DNA of 64,000 nt, taken from positions 247,461-311,460 of the forward strand of contig CAWFBI010000007.1 in assembly GCA_963814015.1 (NCBI GenBank), given 5' to 3'. The position numbers were made by a program, and so were the translations under genes. Shown here piece by piece: positions 5,666-48,506 of this stretch; within the stretch, counting starts at the first letter, position 1, and each line of letters opens with the position of its first letter. Under the pieces are notes generated by a model. It worked only from the letters and a program-made list of their open reading frames with translations, ran no database searches and had not been told where the DNA came from. The stretch is from an uncultured Acidobacteriaceae bacterium. Lineage in GTDB: Bacteria; Acidobacteriota; Terriglobia; Terriglobales; Acidobacteriaceae.

Positions 5666-6958
5666 TTACCCATCTGACACTGCGTTGGCGTCAGATGGGG
5701 TAGCAAGCACTTGCTCCGCCGCGCGATAACCGGAGCGCAGGGCCCCGTGGACCGTGCCCCAATGGCCGCTGGTGTCGGTATGCTCCCCGGCGAAGAAGAG
5801 TGTCTTCTCTACCGGAACCGAGAGCTGATCGGAGGCGTGGATCGCCCCGCGCGGGACATAGGTGTAGGCGCCCAAACTGTGGGTATCCGCCTGCCAGTCG
5901 TGGTGGTGCCAGCGCAGCAGGTGCTTGTGCACATTGTGAAATCTACCGCCGAAAAAGCCGGCGAGCGTCGCCAGGCCGGTCTCCGGCAAACCATCCAACT
6001 TCAGCTCGCTTGCTTTGCGTCCAGCCATCCAGCCGGTCAGCATCGCGGTACGCCTTGGGCTCGTCGTCCACCAGGTCGGGGGAGTGGCCACCGGAGCAAA
6101 GAGAAAACTGACTCCCTCTGGCCAAAGGGCACGGTCAAACTCGTACACCACGCGCGCGGCCGTTCCCATGGCCAGCCTGTCCGCGGCATCGAGAATCTCT
6201 ATCGGTTGCGGCACAAAAGCGACACTTCGAGCCTGCAATACACCCAGGGGCAAGGTGATGATGGCAGCGGAGGCACGGAAGTTGCGGCCGGCCAGGGTTT
6301 TCACTTCGACCCGGCCCGGCTTCCAGGCGATGGTTCGCACTGCAGTCGACACTACCCACTCCCCACCTGCGTCCAGGAACCTGCGTAGCAGAAACTCCGG
6401 GACCCGGGCATAACCTTCCACCACGCGAAACAAACGGTCTCCGGAGATCGCATCTTCGGCGGCCTGTTGTTTCGCGAGCGATAGGATACTGATGCGACTC
6501 GCATCGGCCGCATTGAAGCCTTCGACATAGTTCGTCGCCCAGGCAACGGCCTCCGCCTTGAATCCGCGTTGGGCCACGAATTCTGTGAAGCTGAGGTCCA
6601 CCTGAGGCGGCTCCAGGTGGCCAAGCTCGTCAAACAGCTGCTCCACCTCGCGCCGGTCGCCGCAAGGCTCCAGGCGGCCCACCCCGTTATGCTCGCCGAA
6701 GCAGCGAGTAGCGCCTTCCAGCTCGAAACGGGTGAGGCCCGCCTCATCAATCAGCTGGATTAGCTCCGGAGGCAGTCCGTGCACAAACTCCGCGCCAAGC
6801 TCTACTGGTAACCCACCCTCCACGGCGGGGACGGTGTGTACCCGTCCTCCCACGCGGTCCCGCGCTTCGACCAGCGTCACCCGCAGCCCGGCTTCCGCCA
6901 GCGTTCGGGCGGCTGCCAGTCCGGCGATTCCCGCGCCCACCACGATCACGTCATTCAT
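5666..6958 (-). CDS. FAD-dependent amine oxidase family oxidoreductase
   Basis: Dinucleotide-binding motif [25 protein letters not shown] and C-terminal FFAGEHT. Start taken at MNDV (6958), which gives an 8-nt overlap with the upstream gene's stop. Confidence 0.85.
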
Positions 6959-26530: not shown

Positions 26531-28630
26531 GTGAAACTGAGCCGGACCATCCGCAAATACTTTCGTCTGCGCCGGCATTCGCGGCAGCGACCCGCCTTTG
26601 CACGCGCCCAGGATGAGATTCGCGCCCGGACCAAAGCATTTTCCGCCGCGACCACTCTGGATACGCAGACTGCCAGCTTCACTCGGCTTTTCCATTCCAT
26701 TTGGACCGGCTCCAACGAACGCGCCTTCAACGTGCGCCTGCTGTGCTGGATCCGCATGGCGGAGCATGACGATCTGCTGCGGCTCGATTTTCAGGAAGCT
26801 TTTCAATCCATGCTTTCCCAGCTCGATTCCGTGGCTCTGCTGGCCGAGGCCGGCTTGCCCCGGCACCACGCAGTCTTCTCGGAAGGGCTCCGCCGCATCT
26901 TCAATCGCCTGCTCCCTTCAGCGATGGCGGTAACGGATAGCTCCCGCCTGCTGATCTCGCTCTTCGCCCACAGCCGCGATGTGGAGCGCTTCCTGGAGTT
27001 GCCCCAATCCCTCTTTGAGCGTCTCAGCATAATCCTCGCTCCGCCTGCCACGGGCGGTGGACCGCGCTCCTCACCTCGCCTGCAGAGCGATTTGCGCCAG
27101 GCACTGTGCCTGATCGCCACCCGCATCGCCGGCCGCGGCGTGACCGTGGCCATGCGCGACCGCGGCGGCCGGGCCGAGGTACAGAATTCACCCTTTTACC
27201 AGTTGATTTTCGCTACCGAGGAGCTGGTCGGAGCCCCCGACGCCACTGCCGCCGCCCCTCGCTTTGAGGTCTGGAAAGCAGCTATCAGCAACTGCCGCAA
27301 AGAGCTCGGCCTGGTGCGGCTGGGTATGGAGACTACCGGGGTCAGCGCCGACCTGGTGCTCGACCTGCGGAGTATCGAGCTGGCCCTGATGCGCATGCAC
27401 GGGCTGGCCAGAGTTCTTACCTACGGCGCTGCACCGGTGCCTGGTATCGATAGTTCTGCGGCCGCCCGCAACCTGCTGAACCAGCTCATCGAAGGCCGTC
27501 TGGAAGATAAGCGGGTTTCGGCCCTGCTCAAGCAAAACCTGAATCTGCTGGCACGCAAGACAGTGGAGCGAACCGGCCGCAGCGGCGAACACTACATCGC
27601 CCACAGCCGCAAAGAGTATTGGCAAATGTGGCTTGCCGCCGTGGGCGGGGGGCTGTTAACGGTGCTGACCGCTGCCTTCAAGATGCGCATCGTGGAGCAG
27701 CATTTCCCGCTCTTTGTGGAGGGATTTCTTACCGGCACCAACTACGCCATCAGCTTTATTCTGCTGCAGGTCTTCGGCCTGGTGCTGGCCACCAAGCAGC
27801 CTTCGGCCACGGCCGCTACCTTTGCAGGCATTGTGCGCAACAACCCGGGCAGGGCCAGCTGGAGCAAGATTTCTGACTTCACCGCACGCATCAGCCGCAC
27901 CCAGTTGGCTGCGGCCATCGGCAACGTGATCGCCGTCTGCATCGGCTCTGTTGCCCTGGAGCGTCTGTGGCGGGTGATGTTTGCAGAACATTACCTGCCC
28001 GACGAGAGCGCCCGGCATGTGTACGAGGCGCTTCATCCTTTTGCCTCCGGGACCATCATTTTCGCAGCGGGGACAGGCGTCATCTTGTGGCTGGCGGCGC
28101 TCATTGGCGGATGGTGTGAAAATTTTGCGGTGTTTCACCGCTTGACGGAAGCCGTCTCTCAGCATCCCTTTGGCCTGCGTGTCGGGCACAACCGGATGGC
28201 GCGCCTGGCGGCGTGGATAGAACTCAACCTGGCCGGCTGGAGCACCAGCATCGCGCTTGGCTATCTGCTGGGTTTTGTGCCCGTAGTTGCCCGCTTCTTC
28301 GGCATACCGTTCGATGTACGCCACGTGACCCTTTCCACCGGCACCCTGGCGCTGGCGGCTGCCCGGTTCGGCACCAGTTCCTTTGGCAAGGACTGGTTTT
28401 ATTATGCTTTGGCCGGGATCGGAGTCACCTTCGTTCTTAACCTCGGTGTCAGCTTCTCCATCGCGTCGTTTGTGGCCCTGCGCGCTTACGACGTCCGCGG
28501 GCGGGAACAGTTAATGCTGCTCCGTTATCTACTGCGGCAGATCGTTCGCTCCCCACTCAAGTTCCTGTTGCCGGTGGAGCGTGAGACCCCACCGGTCTCC
28601 ATCCTTACCGCTGTGCCGGAGGAAAAATAG
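26531..28630 (+). CDS. large membrane protein resembling the PF10136 family (annotated 'site-specific recombinase'; function uncertain)
   Basis: 699-aa ORF with a GTG start. Soluble helical N-terminal half (LPRHHAVFSEGLRRIFNRLLPS), then about six TM helices. Family assignment is from memory only. Confidence 0.6.
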   Translation: MKLSRTIRKYFRLRRHSRQRPAFARAQDEIRARTKAFSAATTLDTQTASFTRLFHSIWTGSNERAFNVRLLCWIRMAEHDDLLRLDFQEAFQSMLSQLDSVALLAEAGLPRHHAVFSEGLRRIFNRLLPSAMAVTDSSRLLISLFAHSRDVERFLELPQSLFERLSIILAPPATGGGPRSSPRLQSDLRQALCLIATRIAGRGVTVAMRDRGGRAEVQNSPFYQLIFATEELVGAPDATAAAPRFEVWKAAISNCRKELGLVRLGMETTGVSADLVLDLRSIELALMRMHGLARVLTYGAAPVPGIDSSAAARNLLNQLIEGRLEDKRVSALLKQNLNLLARKTVERTGRSGEHYIAHSRKEYWQMWLAAVGGGLLTVLTAAFKMRIVEQHFPLFVEGFLTGTNYAISFILLQVFGLVLATKQPSATAATFAGIVRNNPGRASWSKISDFTARISRTQLAAAIGNVIAVCIGSVALERLWRVMFAEHYLPDESARHVYEALHPFASGTIIFAAGTGVILWLAALIGGWCENFAVFHRLTEAVSQHPFGLRVGHNRMARLAAWIELNLAGWSTSIALGYLLGFVPVVARFFGIPFDVRHVTLSTGTLALAAARFGTSSFGKDWFYYALAGIGVTFVLNLGVSFSIASFVALRAYDVRGREQLMLLRYLLRQIVRSPLKFLLPVERETPPVSILTAVPEEK

Positions 28631-40380: not shown

Positions 40381-42696
40381 GTGCGCATTTTCACCCGCTA
40401 CATCTGGCATGAAGTGCTCTCGCACGCCCTCCTTGGCGGTGCGCTCTTCACCTTCATCCTGTTCATGAAGTATCTCGGGCAACTGTTGGAGATGGCAGCG
40501 CGCAACAGCGCGTCGCTGGGCAGCGTGGCCAAGATTTTTCTGTTCATGCTGCCTAATATTCTGAGCTTCACGATTCCCATGGCGGTGCTGGTCGGGGTCC
40601 TGCTCGGCCTCAGCCGGCTGGCTGCCGACAGTGAAATTACCGCCATGCGGGCGGTGGGAATTGGCGTCTGGTTCTTTGTCCGCGTAGTCTCAGCAATCGC
40701 CATCGTTGGCTGGGGAATATCGCTGGCCGATTCGCTCTACGTCGCTCCCAGGGCAACCGCCGCGTTATTGAATATCGAGAGCTCGCTTAAAGATCAGCAG
40801 GCCTCATTTCAAGTGGAGCCGCGCGTCTTCTATGAAGACTTCAAGAACTACGTGCTGTACGTGCAGGATATCCGCGCCGGCACAGGAGCCTCGCGATGGC
40901 AGCGCATCTTCCTCGCCGACCTGAGCGACCCGGTCGCGCCCAAGATCACCACGGCCGAGGAAGCGGTCGTTGCCGACAGCGGTGCTCACACCATCCTGAT
41001 GCGTCTGCGCAATGGAACCGAGCACGACATGGTAAGCACCAACGGGGCTCCCCAATACCAGGTTTCCACCTTCGTGGAGTCGGAACTCCCCCTGACCATT
41101 GGCACCCAGGAAGATGCGCACATCGGCCACAATGACACCCCTATTCTTGCCATGGGCAACCGGGTGCTCTATGAGCGCACCAAGGGGCCGGGGGGCAAAC
41201 CTTACCTGATCGAACTCAATAAGCGGTTCGCCTACCCATCGGCCTGCCTGGTCCTGATGCTGATCGGTATTCCCCTCGGCCTCTCCTCGCGGCGCGGCGG
41301 CAAAAGCGCCGGCTTTGTGGTGACCATCGCACTGGTCTTCATTTACTACTTCCTCTCCATGACTGGCACTTCGCTCGCTCGCGAGGGTAAAGTCCCTGTT
41401 TTTGCCGGCGTATGGGCGGCAAATATCCTATTTGCCTTTTTCGGCCTGCTGCTGCTGCGGCAAATGGCGGTCGGGGGATCGGTGGGCACCCAGCTCGCCG
41501 CTATGGTCAGCAAATTCAAAAGCACGCAGCTGCTGAGCCCCAGGCTTGAGCGCAGCACGGGAGAGCGCACCGCCCACGAACGCGGGCGTTTTCCACTCAT
41601 TCTCGACGACTATGTGCTGCGCGAGTTTCTCACCACCTTTTGTCTGGTCCTGGTCAGTTTCGTTCTGCTAATGCTGGTATTTACCTTCTTTGAGCTGCTC
41701 GGCGACATCATCCGCAACCGTACTCCGCTGGTTACAGTCGGCGAATATCTCATCAACCTCACACCCAGCATGCTTTACAACATCACCCCTTTGGGGGTGC
41801 TGGTTGCGGTGCTGGTCACGTTTGGCGTGCTCACCCGAACCAACGAATTTACCGCCATGAAGGCTACCGGCATCAGCTTGTACCGGGTGATGGTTCCCAT
41901 CCTGGTGATATCGGCATTGATCGCCGTCGCCCTTTTCCTTTTCGATGAGTCCTATCTTCCCGGCGCCAACCGGAGGCAGGAGGCTCTGCGCAGCGTCATC
42001 AAAAACAGACCGGCGCAAACCTTTCTACGGCCCGACCAGAAGTGGATCTTCGGGCGGCAGGAGCCTGGGAAGCCCGGCCGCATTTTCTATTACCAGTTCT
42101 TCGATCCGGACCAGGACCGCTTCGCCAATCTAACCGTCTTCGAATTCAACCCGGAGAATTTTTCTCTTTCCCGCCGCATCTTCGCCACCAGCGTCCACTG
42201 GGAGCCACAATTGCAGCAATGGGTCTTTGAACACGGGTGGGAACGCCGCTTCGATGGCGAAGCCGTTAGCAGTTATAGCCAGTTCAGTGTCGAAGGCTAT
42301 CCGGAAATAGGCGAGGGGCCGCAATACTTCAAGAAGGAAGACCTGCAATCGAAAGAGATGACCTTCGGTGAGCTGGAGCGCTACATCCGCGACTTAAGGC
42401 AGAGCGGCTTCGACACAAAAAAACTCAGCGTTCAGCTGAATCTGAAGCTTGCCTATCCGCTCGTAACCCTGGTGATGGCGGTGCTGGCGATTCCTTTTGC
42501 CTTGTCCATGGGCAAACGCGGCTCCCTGACCGGCATAGCCACCGCCATAGGAGTGGCAATCGCTTACTGGTTCGTGGAGCTTACCTTTCAAGCCCTGGGA
42601 GACGTTAATTTTCTGCCCACGCTGCTGGCGGCCTGGTCGCCTGACCTGCTCTTCGGCCTCGCCGGAGCTTACCTGCTGCTGCGCACGCCTACCTAG
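40381..42696 (+). CDS. lptFG: fused LptF-LptG LPS export permease (two YjgP/YjgQ domains)
   Basis: 771 aa with a GTG start. The first permease module starts MRIFTRYIWHEVL.. and the second starts at about aa 400 (LILDDYVLREFLTTF..). Each has three TM helices, a periplasmic domain, then three TM helices. Confidence 0.8.
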   Translation: MRIFTRYIWHEVLSHALLGGALFTFILFMKYLGQLLEMAARNSASLGSVAKIFLFMLPNILSFTIPMAVLVGVLLGLSRLAADSEITAMRAVGIGVWFFVRVVSAIAIVGWGISLADSLYVAPRATAALLNIESSLKDQQASFQVEPRVFYEDFKNYVLYVQDIRAGTGASRWQRIFLADLSDPVAPKITTAEEAVVADSGAHTILMRLRNGTEHDMVSTNGAPQYQVSTFVESELPLTIGTQEDAHIGHNDTPILAMGNRVLYERTKGPGGKPYLIELNKRFAYPSACLVLMLIGIPLGLSSRRGGKSAGFVVTIALVFIYYFLSMTGTSLAREGKVPVFAGVWAANILFAFFGLLLLRQMAVGGSVGTQLAAMVSKFKSTQLLSPRLERSTGERTAHERGRFPLILDDYVLREFLTTFCLVLVSFVLLMLVFTFFELLGDIIRNRTPLVTVGEYLINLTPSMLYNITPLGVLVAVLVTFGVLTRTNEFTAMKATGISLYRVMVPILVISALIAVALFLFDESYLPGANRRQEALRSVIKNRPAQTFLRPDQKWIFGRQEPGKPGRIFYYQFFDPDQDRFANLTVFEFNPENFSLSRRIFATSVHWEPQLQQWVFEHGWERRFDGEAVSSYSQFSVEGYPEIGEGPQYFKKEDLQSKEMTFGELERYIRDLRQSGFDTKKLSVQLNLKLAYPLVTLVMAVLAIPFALSMGKRGSLTGIATAIGVAIAYWFVELTFQALGDVNFLPTLLAAWSPDLLFGLAGAYLLLRTPT

Positions 42697-42717: not shown

Positions 42718-44484
42718 ATGCTTGCCACGCTCCGGCCGCTTTTCCCATATCTGCGCCGCTATCGCCGTGACTTTGTCTGGGGCGGATTGTCCGTCGTGAT
42801 CTCGAATGTGATCTGGATCTTTTTCCCCCAGGTCATTCGCATCGCCATCGACGACCTGAACCACGGCGTCACCCGGCAAAAGATTTTCCTCTACGCCGCG
42901 CTGCTGGTAGCCATTTCCTTCGCCAAGGGTGTCTTCCTCTTCCTCACCCGCTGGATCATCATCGGCATTTCTCGCGAAATTGAGTTTGACCTGCGCAACG
43001 ACCTCTTCCGCCACCTGGAGCGGCAGCCCGCAGCTTACTTCCAGCAACATCGAACCGGCGACATCATGGCCCGCATGACCAACGACCTGAATGCAGTGCG
43101 CATGCTGCTGGGTCCGGCCATTATGTACAGCGCCAACACCGTCCTGTTTTCCATCGGCGCTTTGTATTTCCTGCTCCGCATCAGCCCCTGGCTGACCCTG
43201 GTAGCCCTGGTCCCGTTGCCCCTGGTCAGCGTCCTCGTACAGGTTCTGGGGCGCAAGATTCATGAACGCTTCGAGCGCATTCAGGCGATGTACTCCGAGA
43301 TCTCGGCGCAAGCCCAGGAGAACTTTTCCGGCGCCCGCCTGGTCCGCGCCTTTGCCCAGGAAGAAGCCCAGATTGCCGCCTTTGAACGATCCAATAAAGA
43401 GAATATCCGCCGCGGCCTCCGCCTGGTTCAGCTCATGGGAATGCTGTGGCCGACGCTCGAATTCGTGCTCGGACTTGCCCTGGCCATTACCCTGCTGGTG
43501 GGCGGCCATGAGGTGCTTTCCCACCGCATCAGCATCGGTGATTTTGTTGCCTTCAATACCTATATGGTGATGCTCACCTGGCCGGTCATCGCCCTGGGCT
43601 GGGTAGTAAACCTGTGGCAACGGGGCACCGCTTCGGTAGTGCGCATCGATGAGTTGCTGTCCGACAAGCCAGCCATCGACGATGCCGAGGCTGACCCCAC
43701 CCTTTCAGCCGATCTGAAACTGCGTGGCGACATCGAGTTTCGCAACCTCGACTTTTCCTACTCCGGCTCGGACTCCGGCCGCGCAGAGGTGCTGCATTCG
43801 CTGTCGCTCAAGATTCCGGCCGGCAGCAGTCTTGCCATCGTGGGCCCGACCGGCTCTGGAAAATCGACCCTGGTCAGCCTGATCCCTCGGCTGTATGACG
43901 CCGCCCCGGGAGCCGTTCTGATCGACGATCACCCCATCCGCGATTATCCTCTCGCCCTCTTGCGCTCGAACATTGGCTTCGTTCCCCAGGAGACCTTTTT
44001 ATTCAGTCAGACCATCCGTGGAAATATCGCTTTTGGCGCTCCCTGGGCTACCGATAGCCAGGTTCTTGAGGCCGCCGAAGCCGCGCACATTCGCCGCGAA
44101 TTTGAAGAATTTCCCGCCGGCCTGGCCACCCCCGTCGGTGAGCGCGGCGTCACCCTTTCCGGCGGCCAAAAACAGCGCACCGCGATTGCCCGCGCCGTCA
44201 TCCGCAACCCCCGCATCCTGATCCTCGACGACGCTTTGTCCAGCGTCGACACCTATACCGAGGAGCAGATCCTGGGCGAACTGCAGCGCGTGATGCAGGG
44301 CCGCACTACCTTGTTCATCTCCCACCGCATATCCACCGTCCGCCATGCGGACCAGATTGCCGTGCTGGTGGCCGGCCGCATCGTGGAGCTGGGCACGCAC
44401 GATGAGTTGCTCGCCAGGAACGGCTATTACGCGGATCTGTTCCAGAAGCAGCTGCTCGAAGAAGAGCTGGCAATCACCCACTGA
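42718..44484 (+). CDS. ABC exporter, fused TMD-NBD (MsbA-like lipid flippase)
   Basis: 588 aa with six TM helices, then Walker A GPTGSGKST, signature LSGGQKQR and Walker B ILILDDA. Lies 22 nt downstream of lptFG. Confidence 0.85.
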   Translation: MLATLRPLFPYLRRYRRDFVWGGLSVVISNVIWIFFPQVIRIAIDDLNHGVTRQKIFLYAALLVAISFAKGVFLFLTRWIIIGISREIEFDLRNDLFRHLERQPAAYFQQHRTGDIMARMTNDLNAVRMLLGPAIMYSANTVLFSIGALYFLLRISPWLTLVALVPLPLVSVLVQVLGRKIHERFERIQAMYSEISAQAQENFSGARLVRAFAQEEAQIAAFERSNKENIRRGLRLVQLMGMLWPTLEFVLGLALAITLLVGGHEVLSHRISIGDFVAFNTYMVMLTWPVIALGWVVNLWQRGTASVVRIDELLSDKPAIDDAEADPTLSADLKLRGDIEFRNLDFSYSGSDSGRAEVLHSLSLKIPAGSSLAIVGPTGSGKSTLVSLIPRLYDAAPGAVLIDDHPIRDYPLALLRSNIGFVPQETFLFSQTIRGNIAFGAPWATDSQVLEAAEAAHIRREFEEFPAGLATPVGERGVTLSGGQKQRTAIARAVIRNPRILILDDALSSVDTYTEEQILGELQRVMQGRTTLFISHRISTVRHADQIAVLVAGRIVELGTHDELLARNGYYADLFQKQLLEEELAITH

Positions 44485-44525
44485 TCACCTTGACACCTGG
44501 CGAAATTCAGGTTCAGGATTGTGGG

Positions 44526-44603
44526 CGTGGTGAAGGAGTTCACCGTTAACCGCTGTGCGGCTTTCTCCGCACAGATGATGACTCCTGACAGGGTTTCTGT
44601 CGG
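44526..44603 (+). promoter_or_regulatory. candidate fluoride riboswitch (crcB-motif-like aptamer plus downstream hairpin)
   Basis: P1 GGUG/CACC encloses the loop AAGGAGUU. Then junction GUUAACCGC, 8-bp hairpin 44553-44574, and tail AUGAUGACUCCUGAC whose ACUCC pairs with the loop GGAGU. Three deviations from the recalled consensus. DUF190 gene downstream. Confidence 0.5.
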
Positions 44604-44637
44604 TTGAGTCACTCACGCAGCGACGGAATCCCGAAAA

Positions 44638-46794
44638 GTGAAAAATGGCAAGGGTACGACTACCTTTTGCGCCGTGATGCGGACGAGGATAGAGATGAAT
44701 GCGCCCGGCGGAAACCGCGAATCACAACCCGAGACCGCCTTGAACGACGCGCAGCGCCTTCGGCTAAGCGTGAGTTGCCGATACATCGATCGACTGCTTG
44801 GCGAGATGGATAAGATCCTGCACGCGGCAGGGTCTCAGTCACCCTTCGACAAGTACATCGTGGATATTACCCCGGCGCAGACCAGGGTGCTCGAGGATTA
44901 CATCCATCGTCTTCGCGGCCAGCTACTTCGTTCCCTCGCATGGCAGCAGCTGGAGCCCGACGCCCCTACGATTCCTGTTACCCATGCCATTCTCACTCAC
45001 CTGTCTTTCATCGATATTGCGGTCGAAGAACTTCGCCCTCGTCATATGCGCGGATCCGGCGCCGTCAATGACCATGTCGCCGGCGAACTGAACGGCGTGG
45101 TCCATGAACTACGCTCACTGCTCGAGGCCATGAACCGTTACCTGCGCCAGGAGATGGGAACCAGTCTGGAGGCACGCCTCGAACGCCTCCAGCAAGTGGG
45201 CACGGATATTACGCTGCTGCAAACAACCTCCCAAATCATCACCCGCCACGGAATGGTTGAATTTCGCGGACGTCTCGAAGCATTAGCCTCACGTCTGGAA
45301 GACCGCAGTTTCGAGATTGCTTTCTTTGGTCGAGTGAGTTCAGGCAAGTCATCGCTGCTGAATGCTTTGCTCGGCAGGGAAATTCTGCCCGTCGGGGTCA
45401 ACCCGATAACGGCCGTGCCGACCAGGCTGCGATCTGGTCTCAACTCCCGGGCAATTATGACCTTCGCCAATGGGCACAGCGAGGAAATCCCCCTGAACGA
45501 ACTCGCTCGCTTTGTAACCGAGGAAGGCAATCCGGGAAACACGCGCAATGTGATCCGAGCCGTAGTCGAAATTCCATCACCCAGGCTTGAACAAGGAATC
45601 GTGTTGGTAGACACCCCCGGCCTTGGTTCCCTGGCAAAACGGGGCGCAGGCGAGACCCTGGCCTATCTGCCATCGGCTGATCTGGGTGTCTTGCTAGTGG
45701 ACGCGGGCACAACGCTCAGCGAGGAAGATATCGGTACTCTGCGCCTGCTCTACGAGGCAGGAATTCCGTCGCTTGTCTTGCTCAGTAAGGCCGACCTGCT
45801 GCAAGCGAAGGATCTCGAGAGCGCTCTCGCCTACATCAGCGGCAATCTTCAACAGCAGCTTGGTATCAATCCGACAGTCCATCCGGTAAGTGCGTTGCCC
45901 AGTCATTGGGCGTTGCTCGATAGTTTTTACCAGACCGACTTGCTGCCGCGATTCGGTCGCTCAACCAGCCTACGGAATGAATCGGCCGGTCGGAAAATCG
46001 TAGCTTTGCGCGAGGCGGTGATTGCGGCCATAGAAACCGTGCTGGATCGCAGTGGGCGGCGGGATAACCTGAACCGCACCAGGCTTGACGAACTGGAAGC
46101 AAAACTCAGGCGTTCGATTGGTGTAATCGGCGAGCAGCCGCGCGTCTTTGAGCACGACCTGCTGCTGGTTGAAGAGGGCTGTGATCGAGCCCTGTCCCAT
46201 CTGGCTGAATTAAGCTTGCGATGGACACGGAGCACGGGCGAAACGGACATTGCTCCACTGCAAATTTCTGAGTGGGTAGACGCGTTCGTTCAGGATCAGC
46301 TTAAGGAGCCGATTCGGCGTCTGCGGGAAACATCGGAAGAGGCGATCCACGTAATGCAACAGATTGCCACCACCCTGGATGCTCCTGATGCGCCGGCAGT
46401 GACTGAGATCGAGCTGCTCTTACGAGACCTGCCGCGTTTCGAACTTGCTGCATTAACGAATTCCGTAAGCGTCGGTCACTGGACTCTGCTTGGGGAGAGG
46501 ATGGCGGTCTCACGAATGCGCTCGCAGCTCAAAGAGCAACTCGAGACCATCCTGAGAGATCAATTTCGTGCGTACGGTCGCGTTCTTAATCGATGGATTG
46601 ACCGCACGACGCGTAGCCTGGAGCGGCTTGTAAGCTCCTACGCAGACGGCTACCGGGTGCAGATTCAGCGCCTCGCGGGACACACGGACGAGTCTCTCGA
46701 CATGGAGCAGCTTCGGCTGGATTTGGCTCTCTTGTTACGGCCATCGAAAATCGGCCACTCGCCCGGCGCCGTTAATATTGCCCGGTGCTGCTAA
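44638..46794 (+). CDS. bacterial dynamin-like GTPase
   Basis: G1 GRVSSGKSS, G3 DTPGLGS, G4 SKAD, with long helical regions on both sides. The likely real start is ATG 44695 (SD GAGGA five nt upstream) rather than GTG 44638. Confidence 0.85.
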   Translation: MKNGKGTTTFCAVMRTRIEMNAPGGNRESQPETALNDAQRLRLSVSCRYIDRLLGEMDKILHAAGSQSPFDKYIVDITPAQTRVLEDYIHRLRGQLLRSLAWQQLEPDAPTIPVTHAILTHLSFIDIAVEELRPRHMRGSGAVNDHVAGELNGVVHELRSLLEAMNRYLRQEMGTSLEARLERLQQVGTDITLLQTTSQIITRHGMVEFRGRLEALASRLEDRSFEIAFFGRVSSGKSSLLNALLGREILPVGVNPITAVPTRLRSGLNSRAIMTFANGHSEEIPLNELARFVTEEGNPGNTRNVIRAVVEIPSPRLEQGIVLVDTPGLGSLAKRGAGETLAYLPSADLGVLLVDAGTTLSEEDIGTLRLLYEAGIPSLVLLSKADLLQAKDLESALAYISGNLQQQLGINPTVHPVSALPSHWALLDSFYQTDLLPRFGRSTSLRNESAGRKIVALREAVIAAIETVLDRSGRRDNLNRTRLDELEAKLRRSIGVIGEQPRVFEHDLLLVEEGCDRALSHLAELSLRWTRSTGETDIAPLQISEWVDAFVQDQLKEPIRRLRETSEEAIHVMQQIATTLDAPDAPAVTEIELLLRDLPRFELAALTNSVSVGHWTLLGERMAVSRMRSQLKEQLETILRDQFRAYGRVLNRWIDRTTRSLERLVSSYADGYRVQIQRLAGHTDESLDMEQLRLDLALLLRPSKIGHSPGAVNIARCC

Positions 46795-46803
46795 GGAGGT
46801 TTT

Positions 46804-47562
46804 ATGCTGAAGCCCGGAAAAGCCCTCAAGGTCTCGATCTACTTGAGCGAAGGTGACACCCACCATGGCGTGCCTATTTATGCCAGCATCCTCGATTACC
46901 TCTTTTTTCGAGGCGTCTCCGGCGCGACCGTGTTGAAAGGTGTTGCCGGCTTTGGCGCCGATCATCGCCTGCACAGCTCCAGCTACGTCGAGATCTCGGA
47001 TAAACTGCCTCTCAAGATCGAGTTCATTGAGGCCGAGCAAAAGGTCGAAGAGCTGCTCGGCAGATTAGAAGAGATGGCTGGAAACGGTTTGATCGAAGTC
47101 CAGGAAACTAAAATCGTGAAGCCATCACTCCCCACCAGGCACAAGGCTGGTAAGGCTCAAGCGGCGGTCAGGATTGAAGGCAAGGCCAAACTGATGCGCA
47201 TTTACATTGGAGAAGACGATCGATGGAATGACAAACCGCTTTACAAGATGCTGGTCGAAGCAATGAGGGCAAATGATCTTGCCGGGGCGACGGTTTATCG
47301 CGGCATCCTCGGATACGGGGCGCATCGCAGGGTCCACCGCGACAAGCCTTTTCATATGTCCCATGACGCATCGATAATGCTCTCGGTGGTGGACACAGAA
47401 GAGAAGATTCGGAGCTTTCTGCCCGTACTGGAGCGAATGGTTCAGGAGGGATTGATTGTGCTTTCGGACGTAGATGTGGTGAAGTATTCGCACCGCCCTA
47501 TCCATGCGGACGAAAGCGATGGGGGCACTGCACCTGAATCCTTACCGCACAATCAATTTTGA
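46804..47562 (+). CDS. tandem DUF190 (COG1993, PII-like fold) protein
   Basis: Two ~105-aa repeats, each with the (I/V)Y.GE.D...GKPLY..L......G..GATV.RG..G(F/Y)G pattern recalled from single-domain DUF190 proteins. SD AAGGAGG overlaps the dynamin stop codon. Confidence 0.85.
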   Translation: MLKPGKALKVSIYLSEGDTHHGVPIYASILDYLFFRGVSGATVLKGVAGFGADHRLHSSSYVEISDKLPLKIEFIEAEQKVEELLGRLEEMAGNGLIEVQETKIVKPSLPTRHKAGKAQAAVRIEGKAKLMRIYIGEDDRWNDKPLYKMLVEAMRANDLAGATVYRGILGYGAHRRVHRDKPFHMSHDASIMLSVVDTEEKIRSFLPVLERMVQEGLIVLSDVDVVKYSHRPIHADESDGGTAPESLPHNQF

Positions 47563-47840
47563 GAGCAGGTTTGCGCGTCTCTCCGGGCAATGGTCTCCTC
47601 GATCGCGGAGATCAACGACCATCAATTTAGTCGGCTGGAGGGCGACTTCGTCTGGCGCCATCACCCGAACACGGACAAGACGTTTCATTGTTCTCGACGG
47701 TCGTCTGAGGATCGACTTCAGAGATGGCGCGGTTGACTTGTTCTCAAGTGCTGGGCTGATGAGGACTTTAGAGCGTGCCTGATAAGCGGAGCAGCCCGTG
47801 AAGGCCGTAGCGATGAATGTGCTGCAATTAGACTTCGGGT
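47519..47840 (+). pseudogene. decayed small cupin-domain gene
   Basis: Motifs of the ~110-aa cupin family are spread over several frames: TINFESRFARLSGQWSP in frame a, IAEINDHQFSRLEGDFVWRHHPNTDKTF in frame b, IVLDGRLRIDFRDGAVDL in frame a, then weak VPDKR..QPVKAVA..VLQLDFG remnants. Confidence 0.5.
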
Positions 47841-48506
47841 ATGAGCGACTACCATCACTTCCGCGACGATTTGCCGAATGAACCACCCGTTCGTGGATTC
47901 CTGCATCGCCCGGCCGATGCGATCGGCGATTGGCTTGTCTTGACCCATGGTGCGGGCGCAAACTGTAATGCCCCGCTCCTCGTAGCGCTGGCAGATGCGT
48001 TCTCCGCGTCGGGGTTGAATGTCCTTCGCTGCGATCTCCCCTTTCGCCAATTGCGACCCCACGGGCCGCCACCACGCGGCAGTGCAGAACGCGACCAGCA
48101 GGGGCTCTCTGCGGCCGTTGCCTCCGTAAGGCGACAGAGTTCGGGCCGTACGTTCCTGGGGGGTCATTCCTACGGAGGAAGGCAGGCGTCGATGCTGGCC
48201 GCTGATGAACCAGGTCTGGTTGATTGTCTACTGCTGCTCTCCTACCCGCTCCATCCGCCCCAACGGCCGGGTGAGCTACGCACCGCGCACTTCCCGCGAC
48301 TGCAAACCCCAGCGCTATTCGTGCACGGTGCACGCGATGGCTTCGGTTCCACCGATGAGTTGGGAGCGGCGCTAAAGCTTATCCCTGCACGAACGGAGCT
48401 GCTAACAGTTACTGGTGCCGGCCACGAACTCCTCACCAGGAAAAATCGTGATGAGTTACCGGGGACGGTGGTGGAGACGTTTCGGTCATTTGCCGCTGTG
48501 GTTTGA
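47841..48506 (+). CDS. alpha/beta-fold hydrolase (COG3571-like)
   Basis: 221 aa with LVLTHGAGAN, GGHSYGGRQAS and FVHGARDGFG motifs. Confidence 0.8.
   Translation: MSDYHHFRDDLPNEPPVRGFLHRPADAIGDWLVLTHGAGANCNAPLLVALADAFSASGLNVLRCDLPFRQLRPHGPPPRGSAERDQQGLSAAVASVRRQSSGRTFLGGHSYGGRQASMLAADEPGLVDCLLLLSYPLHPPQRPGELRTAHFPRLQTPALFVHGARDGFGSTDELGAALKLIPARTELLTVTGAGHELLTRKNRDELPGTVVETFRSFAAVV

Follow-up and report, generated by a model that had tools for sequence, protein, structure and literature searches.

In a 64,000-nt stretch of DNA from an uncultured Acidobacteriaceae bacterium (the window), we identified what is probably a fluoride-inducible operon of a dynamin-like GTPase, which we designate DLP-A, and a protein of two tandem DUF190 domains, DUF190x2. 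We put at about 0.7 the probability of this reading, in which the operon is the reduced form of a larger island and its products would serve membrane remodelling or repair with PII-like regulation. Comparison of the sequences strongly supports a locus that responds to fluoride. The first-pass annotation of this DNA had suggested a fluoride-responsive membrane-remodelling or sensing system without an exporter; the fluoride part was upheld by the riboswitch and its conserved linkage to these genes, the exporter-less part was not, and the membrane-remodelling role may apply. The features of the locus are given in Table 1.

Table 1. Features of the DLP-A locus, in coordinates of the window
Feature	Position	Strand	Remarks
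Candidate -35 element TTGACA	44490..44495	+	Just past ABC transporter stop codon (44482-44484)
Fluoride riboswitch aptamer (crcB motif)	44520..44594	+	Rfam RF01734
Conserved post-aptamer segment	44595..44640	+	Probable expression platform
Dynamin-like GTPase DLP-A, 699 aa	44695..46794	+	Pfam Dynamin_N
DLP-A/DUF190 junction	46792..46806	+	TAAGGAGGttttATG; read from sequence
Tandem DUF190 (PII-like) protein, 252 aa	46804..47562	+	Two ferredoxin-like domains
Cupin_2 pseudogene remnant	47534..47740	+	Residues 1-72, two frameshifts, truncated
Alpha/beta hydrolase Abhydrolase_11	47841..48506	+, co-directional	Pfam 2.9e-32

Fluoride riboswitch and leader

What had been described as a riboswitch-like leader upstream of the GTPase gene matched RF01734 over its full length (model 1-64) at 37.7 bits, above the gathering score of 34 (E = 7e-7 for the whole window), and scored 81 bits with a covariance model built in this analysis; a regular-expression scan was far less sensitive and was discarded in favor of covariance models. 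Using the helix and tertiary pair definitions of PMC11586693, we saw that the window aptamer retains P1, P3, the pseudoknot GGAGU/ACUCC and the reversed A6-U38 and A40-U48 tertiary pairs. When 175 distinct aptamers from related loci were compared, 94% of cells were paired, there was covariation in P1, P3 and the pseudoknot, and the A6-U38 pair was A-U in 110 and U-A in 65, with no mismatches. Judged as sequence, by Rfam score and covariation, the element is confirmed as a genuine fluoride riboswitch.

An aptamer of the same type lies immediately 5' of the GTPase orthologue in all members of the window clade. About 30 nt 5' of the aptamer is a TTGACA hexamer, unchanged in 7/7 window-clade members, which is a candidate promoter -35 element; a consensus scan found no -10 element to partner it. 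The segment that follows the aptamer, unchanged throughout the window-clade alignment, is probably the expression platform. In it GAGUCA (44606-44611) complements the aptamer 3' strand UGACUC (44579-44584), and an alternative hairpin of GGGUUUCUGUCGG (44591-44603) with CGACGGAAUCCC (44621-44632) was seen in the minimum-free-energy fold. The folding signal of the leader was weak (z-score -1.86) and the fold contained no clear ON/OFF platform; terminator scan and fold gave no recognisable terminator or SD-sequestering helix in this segment. By analogy with known fluoride riboswitches, fluoride bound to the aptamer would act as an ON signal for DLP-A and DUF190x2. Separately, we observed a fluoride aptamer variant with a swapped tertiary pair (U6-A38) that is overlooked by Rfam annotation.

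The dynamin-like GTPase

The DLP-A open reading frame spans 44638-46794, and its true start is likely the ATG at 44695, which is preceded by GAGGA at 44685-44689 and gives a protein of exactly the length of database protein P0001. DLP-A matched Dynamin_N at 1.2e-24 (87.7 bits, cutoff 27), and G1 GRVSSGKSS, the G2 threonine T239, G3 DTPG and G4 SKAD were invariant in 40 homologues, in keeping with the first-pass annotation, which had described a ~700-aa dynamin-family GTPase with GRVSSGKSS, DTPGLGS and SKAD motifs. It had also seen no obvious transmembrane segment, and we found neither a transmembrane segment nor a clearly hydrophobic paddle in DLP-A; the C-terminal ..ARCC that it listed as an oddity is not conserved.

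The protein is composed of an N-terminal domain (~1-200), the GTPase (~205-400) and a helical neck/trunk (~402-680). PDB profile matches were to C. jejuni DLP2, IniA and BDLP. An AlphaFold2 model (pLDDT 71.5) had low confidence in the N-terminal domain and long helices at 402-661 with pLDDT 75-92, and with this model Foldseek matched IniA (4e-18 over 569 columns) and BDLP (2.5e-14 over 680 columns), with TM-scores of only 0.25-0.33, such as are expected between different conformations. The predicted helical neck/trunk following the GTPase fits a BDLP/mitofusin-like architecture, and a conserved loop at 577-600 (RDLPRFE...HW..G) between the trunk helices is a candidate membrane-binding paddle or loop. 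DLP-A thus shares Dynamin_N, G1-G4 and a neck/trunk with IniA (6j72, M. smegmatis), BDLP (2j68, Nostoc), DLP1/DLP2 (5owv, C. jejuni) and DynA (B. subtilis), but differs from known bacterial DLPs in its fluoride riboswitch control and its ~200-residue N-terminal domain, which is confined to the DLP-A family (899 clusters, always N-terminal, in proteins of ~690 aa). PADLOC and NCBIfam assigned no family to DLP-A or DUF190x2.

The tandem DUF190 protein and downstream genes

At the junction, tgctgcTAAGGAGGttttATG, the DLP-A stop codon (46792-46794) is followed by a 9-nt spacer and the DUF190x2 ATG at 46804; the stop codon could be seen directly to fall within the Shine-Dalgarno sequence of DUF190x2, as had been claimed, and the two genes would be co-transcribed. 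The claim of a tandem DUF190 protein, for which an HMM search had been proposed as a check, was borne out by a match to PF02641 in two stretches (4.8e-64, 213 bits, gathering score 23.4); there was also a match to Pfam P-II (7.7e-10, 39.5 bits, cutoff 25). The PDB entries matched by sequence, 2dcl (5e-22) and 1o51 (2.5e-21), were also the best Foldseek matches (target-normalised TM-scores of 0.76-0.86) of an AlphaFold2 model in which beta-alpha-beta-beta-alpha-beta occurs twice. The 2dcl entry holds 3 chains.

DUF190x2 belongs to the same family as TM0021 (1o51) and PH1503 (2dcl), i.e., DUF190/COG1993/UPF0166, with the same PII-like ferredoxin fold and genomic link to crcB and fluoride; unlike the single DUF190 proteins it has two domains per chain, is paired with a DLP, and has lost the accompanying single-domain gene. 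Its P-II match, fold and long flexible loop at the T-loop position are also those of GlnB/GlnK, but it has no nitrogen-regulation context and its loops, which are conserved in each domain (GFGADHxxH and GYGAHRRVH), differ in their GFGADH and GYGAHRRVH sequences. Another DUF190 member, flJ, is found in the fluorination cluster of Streptomyces cattleya (PMC9173684).

The 3' end of the DUF190x2 gene reads into a cupin remnant, which accounts for its final ~10 codons and for its length of 252 aa in the window compared with ~240 in relatives. This remnant, noted earlier as a decayed cupin gene followed by an alpha/beta hydrolase (both of which we recovered), has 82% nucleotide identity to positions 6373-6590 of related locus L006, where an intact 122-aa cupin is encoded upstream of the riboswitch, and it marks a rearrangement junction. 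A terminator scan found no terminator-like site in 47562-47841, and in loci L001 and L005 the hydrolase begins 2-30 nt past the single-DUF190 gene; the transcription unit may end with the hydrolase gene, which is not in the conserved fluoride gene set.

The fluoride island in related genomes

Our first comparison set consisted of 81 Acidobacteriaceae loci, with denominators that vary by gene. A fluoride-type aptamer was within 260 nt upstream of the GTPase orthologue in 75/80 loci, and a full-length riboswitch was reached by a co-directional gene chain in 59/60. The tandem DUF190 gene lay downstream of DLP-A in 67/72, showing that the DLP-DUF190 pairing, whose conservation had been raised as a question, is a recurrent one (it takes other orders in other lineages). 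A single-domain DUF190 gene was present in 64/69 loci, a second DLP in 45/65, and enolase upstream in 44/74, and tblastn placed crcB directly after DLP-A and before the DUF190 genes in 66/79. The usual order was riboswitch-(Na+/H+ antiporter-USP)-enolase-second, variant aptamer-DLP-A-CrcB-Cys-rich protein-DUF190x2-DUF190x1-DLP-C, with crcB starting a few to ~20 nt past the DLP-A stop (e.g., 8097 to 8101 in L004, the CrcB of which is a true member of TIGR00494). The company of the two genes had been considered unusual for an unpaired DLP and a DUF190 protein away from crcB; this holds for the window, where we found no partner DLP within the 64 kb, but not for its relatives, which have a second DLP in the operon, as in typical BDLP pairs, and a gene for a third DUF190 domain.

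The islands of the relatives also hold genes for enolase, CrcB, USP, a Na/H exchanger, pyrophosphatase, and MutS-like and hydrogenlyase-like proteins, which are the classic fluoride-riboswitch genes (PMC2864571, PMC5533749). One such resistance operon under fluoride-riboswitch control is ppaC-uspA-eno-gpmA-crcB of Enterobacter cloacae FRM (PMC5533749). The window is like these RF01734-controlled operons in the aptamer class of its 5' leader, and its relatives are like them in gene content (the Na+/H+ antiporter included), but the window itself has a DLP and a tandem DUF190 protein with neither an exporter nor a fluoride-inhibited enzyme.

A second set of 77 divergent loci came from Bryobacteraceae, Binatia, Eisenbacteria, Vicinamibacterales, Methanosarcina and Methanoregula. 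The aptamer was within 400 nt upstream in 54/77, in a further 15 it was more distant, upstream and on the same strand (69/77 in total), and ten loci were verified at the Rfam gathering score. Gene orders included RS-CrcB-DUF190-DLP (L153 and L154) and RS-DUF190x3-DLP (L125). In 23/59 divergent loci DLP-A had no DUF190 or CrcB gene within 5 kb, so the role of the DLP is not strictly dependent on a co-encoded DUF190 protein. Over both sets, which span several phyla and the two domains, ~90% of the 157 loci had the riboswitch association, so that besides the window some 150 species genomes of bacteria and archaea have a DLP-A family gene downstream of a fluoride switch. Cultured carriers include Acidicapsa dinghuensis 4GSKX (L080), Acidobacteriaceae bacterium TAA166 (L004) and Methanosarcina hadiensis TD41E1-1 (L122).

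A reduced operon in the window clade

Searching the 64-kb window by tblastn found no CrcB, and the multi-TM ORFs that we examined were neither CLC nor CrcB, in agreement with the earlier statement that no CrcB or EriC-F gene is present there. The further proposal of a module without a canonical exporter was contradicted by the related loci with crcB between the DLP and DUF190 genes. By comparison with these, the window clade has a reduced operon from which crcB, enolase, the Cys-rich gene and DLP-C were lost, the single-domain DUF190 gene being additionally missing from the window itself, and the missing exporter is a lineage-specific loss and not a design of the module; the fluoride exporter of the source genome is presumably encoded elsewhere. 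The nearest locus among species representatives has 81% identity to the window. With dN/dS of 0.14-0.24 for DLP-A and 0.07-0.09 for DUF190x2, both remaining genes are under purifying selection in this CrcB-less clade (0.07-0.24). Decay of the operon in the window was ruled out, as both ORFs are intact at these ratios.

The proximity of crcB to DLP-A raises an alternative, which we consider unlikely but worth stating, that DLP-A and DUF190 serve the Fluc/CrcB fluoride channel as accessory factors, acting in its insertion, clustering or gating and not in general membrane repair, with the CrcB of the window organism encoded elsewhere. The close spacing of the two genes in 66/79 loci, the TIGR00494 membership of the L004 protein, and the position of DUF190 genes after crcB in the islands and in L153, L154 and L122 all favor such a role. 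Set against it are the window clade, where DLP-A and DUF190 have stayed under purifying selection with no crcB in the operon, and the 23/59 divergent loci in which riboswitch and DLP-A stand alone; in addition, we know of no need of Fluc for accessory proteins, the channels having been reconstituted.

Proposed function and significance

In the fluoride-inducible operon that we favor, DLP-A would be made when the cell is loaded with HF/F-, a condition that would be acute for acidophiles, and would be a GTP-driven protein of the BDLP/IniA type that binds membranes and remodels or repairs them. DUF190 proteins would form PII-like trimeric assemblies; in the relatives, the third, single-domain gene suggests a 2+1 pseudo-trimer of tandem and single products, going by gene organisation in the 64/69 loci. 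With their conserved T-loop-like loops they may detect a nucleotide or an ion and control the DLP, through physical interaction, and/or the Fluc (CrcB) channel. Direct damage to membranes is not a known effect of fluoride, which counts against a membrane-remodelling role.

Fluoride could instead act on the protein. That DLP-A is a dedicated fluoride-stress dynamin directly modulated by fluoride (e.g., by a GDP-MgF3-/AlF4- dimer lock), with DUF190 proteins as sensors, seems to us improbable; if true, it would be a system new to science that senses fluoride or metal fluorides at the protein level and remodels membranes, present in Acidobacteriota, in other phyla of the soil and in methanogenic archaea. 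Still more doubtful is the related idea of DLP-A as a fluoride-responsive or trapping NTPase, whose G-domain dimer is locked by MgF3- or AlF4- with GDP as a transition-state mimic, fluoride being either the ligand that triggers membrane tethering or, in Al-rich acid soils, taken up by abundant DLP as a metal-fluoride sink. GDP-AlF4- stabilises G-domain dimers in the dynamin superfamily, the islands hold several P-loop NTPases (three DLP types, an AAA ATPase and a MutS-like ATPase), and their carriers are mainly acid-soil and peat Acidobacteriota and methanogens; however, we saw no sequence feature specific to metal-fluoride binding, the catalytic motifs of DLP-A appear standard, stoichiometric trapping would be an inefficient detoxification, and the idea is one of pure inference. 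Links of bacterial DLPs to phage and to stress of the membrane are known, and PADLOC gave weak matches to LeoBC and LeoA (32-34 bits, GTPase region only), but an anti-phage (Eleos/'Dynamins', LeoABC-like) or generic envelope-stress system beside a riboswitch by chance is scarcely credible given the riboswitch association across phyla and domains, the lack of a LeoA/B/C trio and of an NCBIfam LeoA-family match above cutoff (15.4 bits vs 325), and neighbours that are fluoride-regulon and not defence genes.

The fluoride-inducible operon would make DLP-A a contributor to fluoride defence that has apparently not been described before. The first-pass annotation knew of no described DLP-DUF190 pairing. 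Searchable full text gave nothing that ties dynamin-like proteins to either fluoride riboswitches or crcB (Baker et al. 2012 lying outside this scope), and dynamin-like GTPases were absent from the fluoride-riboswitch genes in Weinberg 2010 and 200 of its 438 supplementary files.

Bacterial DLPs are widespread, and to our knowledge the physiological trigger and function of most are not known. Here a whole DLP subfamily, spanning hundreds of 50%-identity clusters and sampled in ~150 species genomes, is tied through its riboswitch to one chemically defined inducer, making its function directly testable. It would be a new class of effector for the fluoride regulon, hitherto composed of exporters, replacements of fluoride-inhibited enzymes and ion-homeostasis proteins. 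The long-orphan DUF190 family in turn gains a conserved set of partners in CrcB, the DLP and the Cys-rich protein; the Cys-rich neighbour c4 has a slight resemblance to DUF6062 (E = 0.002, below cutoff).

A fluoride riboswitch precedes a dynamin-like GTPase gene and a tandem DUF190 gene

The first-pass annotation, made from sequence alone, had proposed that a dynamin-like GTPase gene and a tandem-DUF190 gene behind a riboswitch-like leader might form a fluoride module that lacks a canonical exporter. We found both open reading frames where it had placed them, and the leader proved to be a fluoride riboswitch (RF01734; 37.7 bits, above the gathering score of 34), the sole Rfam match in the window. 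From its likely start the GTPase, designated DLP-A, has 699 residues, the same length as the matching database protein P0001; it matched Pfam Dynamin_N (1.2e-24), motifs G1 (GRVSSGKSS), G3 (DTPG) and G4 (SKAD) were invariant across 40 homologues, and, as had been claimed, no TM segment was predicted. Profile searches matched DLP-A to C. jejuni DLP2, IniA, BDLP and mitofusins, and the best Foldseek matches of its AlphaFold2 model (mean pLDDT 71.5, good in the GTPase domain and C-terminal helices and poor in the N-terminal domain) were IniA (4e-18) and BDLP (2.5e-14). The DLP-A stop codon (TAA) does lie inside the Shine-Dalgarno sequence (AAGGAGG) of the downstream gene, whose ATG follows 9 nt later. 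That gene encodes the expected 252-residue protein with two DUF190 domains (PF02641, 4.8e-64), which also passed the P-II model threshold; neither protein of the operon could be assigned to a curated NCBIfam or PADLOC family. The aptamer is a bona fide fluoride aptamer, and the two genes form a compact two-gene unit.

Features of the window and of related loci in other genomes
Feature	Position	Strand	Remark
SpecificRecomb ORF	26531-28630	+	699 aa
Putative fused LptF/LptG-type permease	40381-42696	+	single 771-aa ORF, ~11 TM segments
MsbA-type ABC exporter	end 44484		upstream of operon
TTGACA	44490-44495		kept in all close relatives
Fluoride riboswitch	44520-44594
GAGUCA	44606-44611		conserved, downstream of aptamer
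DLP-A ORF	44638-46794		likely start ATG 44695, GAGGA before it
Tandem DUF190 gene	ATG 46804
Cupin_2 remnant	47534-47740		frameshifted, truncated
DinB/MST gene			after Abhydrolase_11 gene, convergent
Intact cupin gene	L006 6375-6743
Variant aptamers	L080 6878-6930; L034 6919-6971; L015 6876-6926
Acido-Lenti-1 RNAs (close relative)	L002 5463-5508; 5620-5664; 9475-9522	-; +; -
c4	L062 5396-6085		229 aa
DLP with Cys-rich C-terminal domain	L004 1971-3683 (DLP-B); L042 12264-13571

A tblastn search of the 64 kb with proteins of the island, the conserved Acidobacteriaceae fluoride gene set around DLP-A, found no enolase, pyrophosphatase, third DUF190 domain or second DLP, and no CrcB (Fluc fluoride channel), as the first-pass annotation had noted; the multi-TM ORFs that we examined were neither CLC nor CrcB. 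Both halves of the LptF/LptG-like ORF, which lies directly upstream of the MsbA-like gene, align to the related locus L001 (tblastn). The SpecificRecomb ORF (PF10136, 1.7e-159) has ~5 predicted TM-like segments, odd for a "site-specific recombinase" family. Downstream of the operon, the reported decayed cupin gene and alpha/beta hydrolase gene (Abhydrolase_11) were both recognized. In the closest relatives the cupin gene is intact and lies upstream of the riboswitch, with an amine oxidase gene there too, so the riboswitch-DLP-DUF190 block has either moved with respect to the adjacent genes or been inserted independently; in the window, the rearrangement junction falls within the last ~10 codons of the tandem DUF190 gene. 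In the close relative L002, three Acido-Lenti-1 RNA matches (RF01687, 42-53 bits) flank this block.

Conservation of the linkage

A profile of nine DLP-A orthologues gave a first set of 80 loci among GTDB species representatives, nearly all Acidobacteriaceae, in which our own covariance model, built from eight Rfam-confirmed aptamers, found 187 aptamer matches; the stronger ones, in 14 loci, pass the Rfam gathering score. An aptamer lies ≤260 nt upstream of DLP-A in 75 of 80 loci, and a co-directional gene chain connects DLP-A to a full-length riboswitch in 59/60. The DLP-DUF190 pairing recurs, with tandem DUF190 genes in 67 of 72 loci and single ones in 64 of 69; CrcB is immediately downstream of DLP-A in 66/79, an enolase upstream in 44/74, and a second, shorter DLP is present in 45/65. 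Other recurrent neighbours (Pfam) were Na+/H+ exchanger, USP, inorganic pyrophosphatase, MutS-like ATPase and AAA ATPase, along with divergently transcribed clusters resembling hydrogenlyase/Nuo-type subunits, labelled by inspection alone. Except for the AAA ATPase, links of the recurrent neighbour classes to the crcB motif and fluoride resistance are already known (PMC5533749, PMC2864571). The linkage of the DLP-A operon to fluoride-regulon genes is strong and evolutionarily conserved. A defence system that lies near a riboswitch by coincidence is a rival reading.

Seven members (the window, L006-L009, L013 and L046) make up a clade with the riboswitch immediately before DLP-A. This clade lacks crcB, the Cys-rich neighbour gene c4, enolase and DLP-C (the second DLP); the window alone has additionally lost the single-domain DUF190. 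Purifying selection acts on both genes in this clade (dN/dS 0.14-0.24 for DLP-A and 0.07-0.09 for tandem DUF190).

The N-terminal 200 residues of DLP-A matched 899 clusters at 50% identity, the best 150 of which matched at the N-terminus of ~670-710-residue proteins or of shorter, probably partial, products; DLP-A belongs to a DLP subfamily of its own. From members sharing 32-36% identity over the N-terminal domain we built a profile that gave a second set of 80 further loci. They belong to Bryobacteraceae, other Terriglobia, Ca. Sulfotelmatobacter, Ca. Acidiferrales, Vicinamibacterales, Binatia, Eisenbacteria and methanogens, one of them in the complete Methanosarcina hadiensis genome. In 54 of 77 loci a plus-strand aptamer precedes the DLP by at most 400 nt, and in 15 more a same-strand aptamer lies farther upstream; ten loci pass the Rfam gathering score. 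Within 5 kb of the DLP we found DUF190 in 36/59 and CrcB in 29/59, with gene orders such as riboswitch-CrcB-DUF190-DLP (L153, L154) and riboswitch-DUF190x3-DLP (L125). The DLP-DUF190 link is strong, not universal; many Bryobacteraceae and Binatia loci have DLP-A alone under the riboswitch, which makes the link between riboswitch and DLP the broadest of all.

In methanogenic archaea, the subfamily adjoins Rfam-confirmed fluoride riboswitches in M. hadiensis TD41E1-1 (L122), Methanoregula sp. (L145) and Methanolinea sp. (L165), which implies inter-domain transfer of the module. L122 has the order riboswitch-Na/H antiporter-pyrophosphatase-enolase-DLP plus a divergent riboswitch-CrcB-DUF190.

A full-text search for a link between the fluoride riboswitch or crcB and dynamin or dynamin-like proteins returned nothing relevant, with an earlier mention in Baker et al. 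2012 possible; dynamin is absent from the crcB-motif paper (PMC2864571) and a 2020 Breaker-lab review, and from 200 of the paper's 438 supplementary files. We rate the window operon as one of the fluoride-riboswitch kind whose effector class is new.

Proposed mechanism

From what is known of fluoride riboswitches, F- would stabilize the aptamer pseudoknot and turn expression on. The conserved GAGUCA can pair with UGACUC of the aptamer, and folding together with the clade alignment indicates that a mutually exclusive alternative hairpin is possible; no canonical terminator was found in the leader. Going by family membership, DLP-A may bind and remodel or repair membranes in a GTP-dependent manner, and DUF190, as a PII-like regulator, would sense a ligand and act on the DLP, the Fluc channel or both. 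Two rivals to this membrane role are that DLP-A and DUF190 act as Fluc accessories, and that the GTPase itself responds directly to metal fluorides.

The tandem DUF190 protein is very conserved (mean column identity 73%), its closest structures are PH1503 and TM0021, and its conserved motifs GFGADHxxH and GYGAHRRVH lie in loops modelled with low confidence, where a PII-like fold has its T-loop. Because the tandem-plus-single gene pair is near-constant, we infer that the two products may form a three-domain pseudo-trimer. One metagenome protein (P0127, 384 residues), the only such sequence seen, is an apparent three-domain fusion of tandem and single DUF190; since unrelated residues stand in place of the start of its third domain, a frameshift or read-through probably explains it.

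Aptamer variants and other features of the islands

In ~60 related loci, all outside the window, the enolase-DLP-A intergenic region carries a 50-55-nt fluoride-aptamer variant (consensus GGUGUUGGAGUCCACC..AAnCGCUC-loop-GGGCAGAUGACUCCU), missed by standard annotation because it scores only 13.5 bits against the Rfam gathering score of 34. It keeps P1, the covarying P3 helix and the pseudoknot, and exchanges the reversed Watson-Crick tertiary pair A6-U38 for U6-A38, a compensatory swap; over all collected aptamers, pair 6-38 was A-U in 110 distinct sequences, U-A in 65 and mismatched in none.

Single loci of 14-16 kb (L004, L064, L068, L071, L145 and others) hold between three and five fluoride aptamers, which are spread over both strands and head separate hydrogenlyase-like, enolase/DLP, pyrophosphatase/AAA ATPase and MutS-like units, and are unusually dense "fluoride islands". 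The c4 protein, which follows crcB in 53/76 first-set loci, has many CxxC motifs and a weak resemblance to DUF6062. These islands also encode a third DLP type, which has a DUF6062-like Cys-rich C-terminal domain, a domain-fusion hint that may tie c4 to dynamin GTPases.
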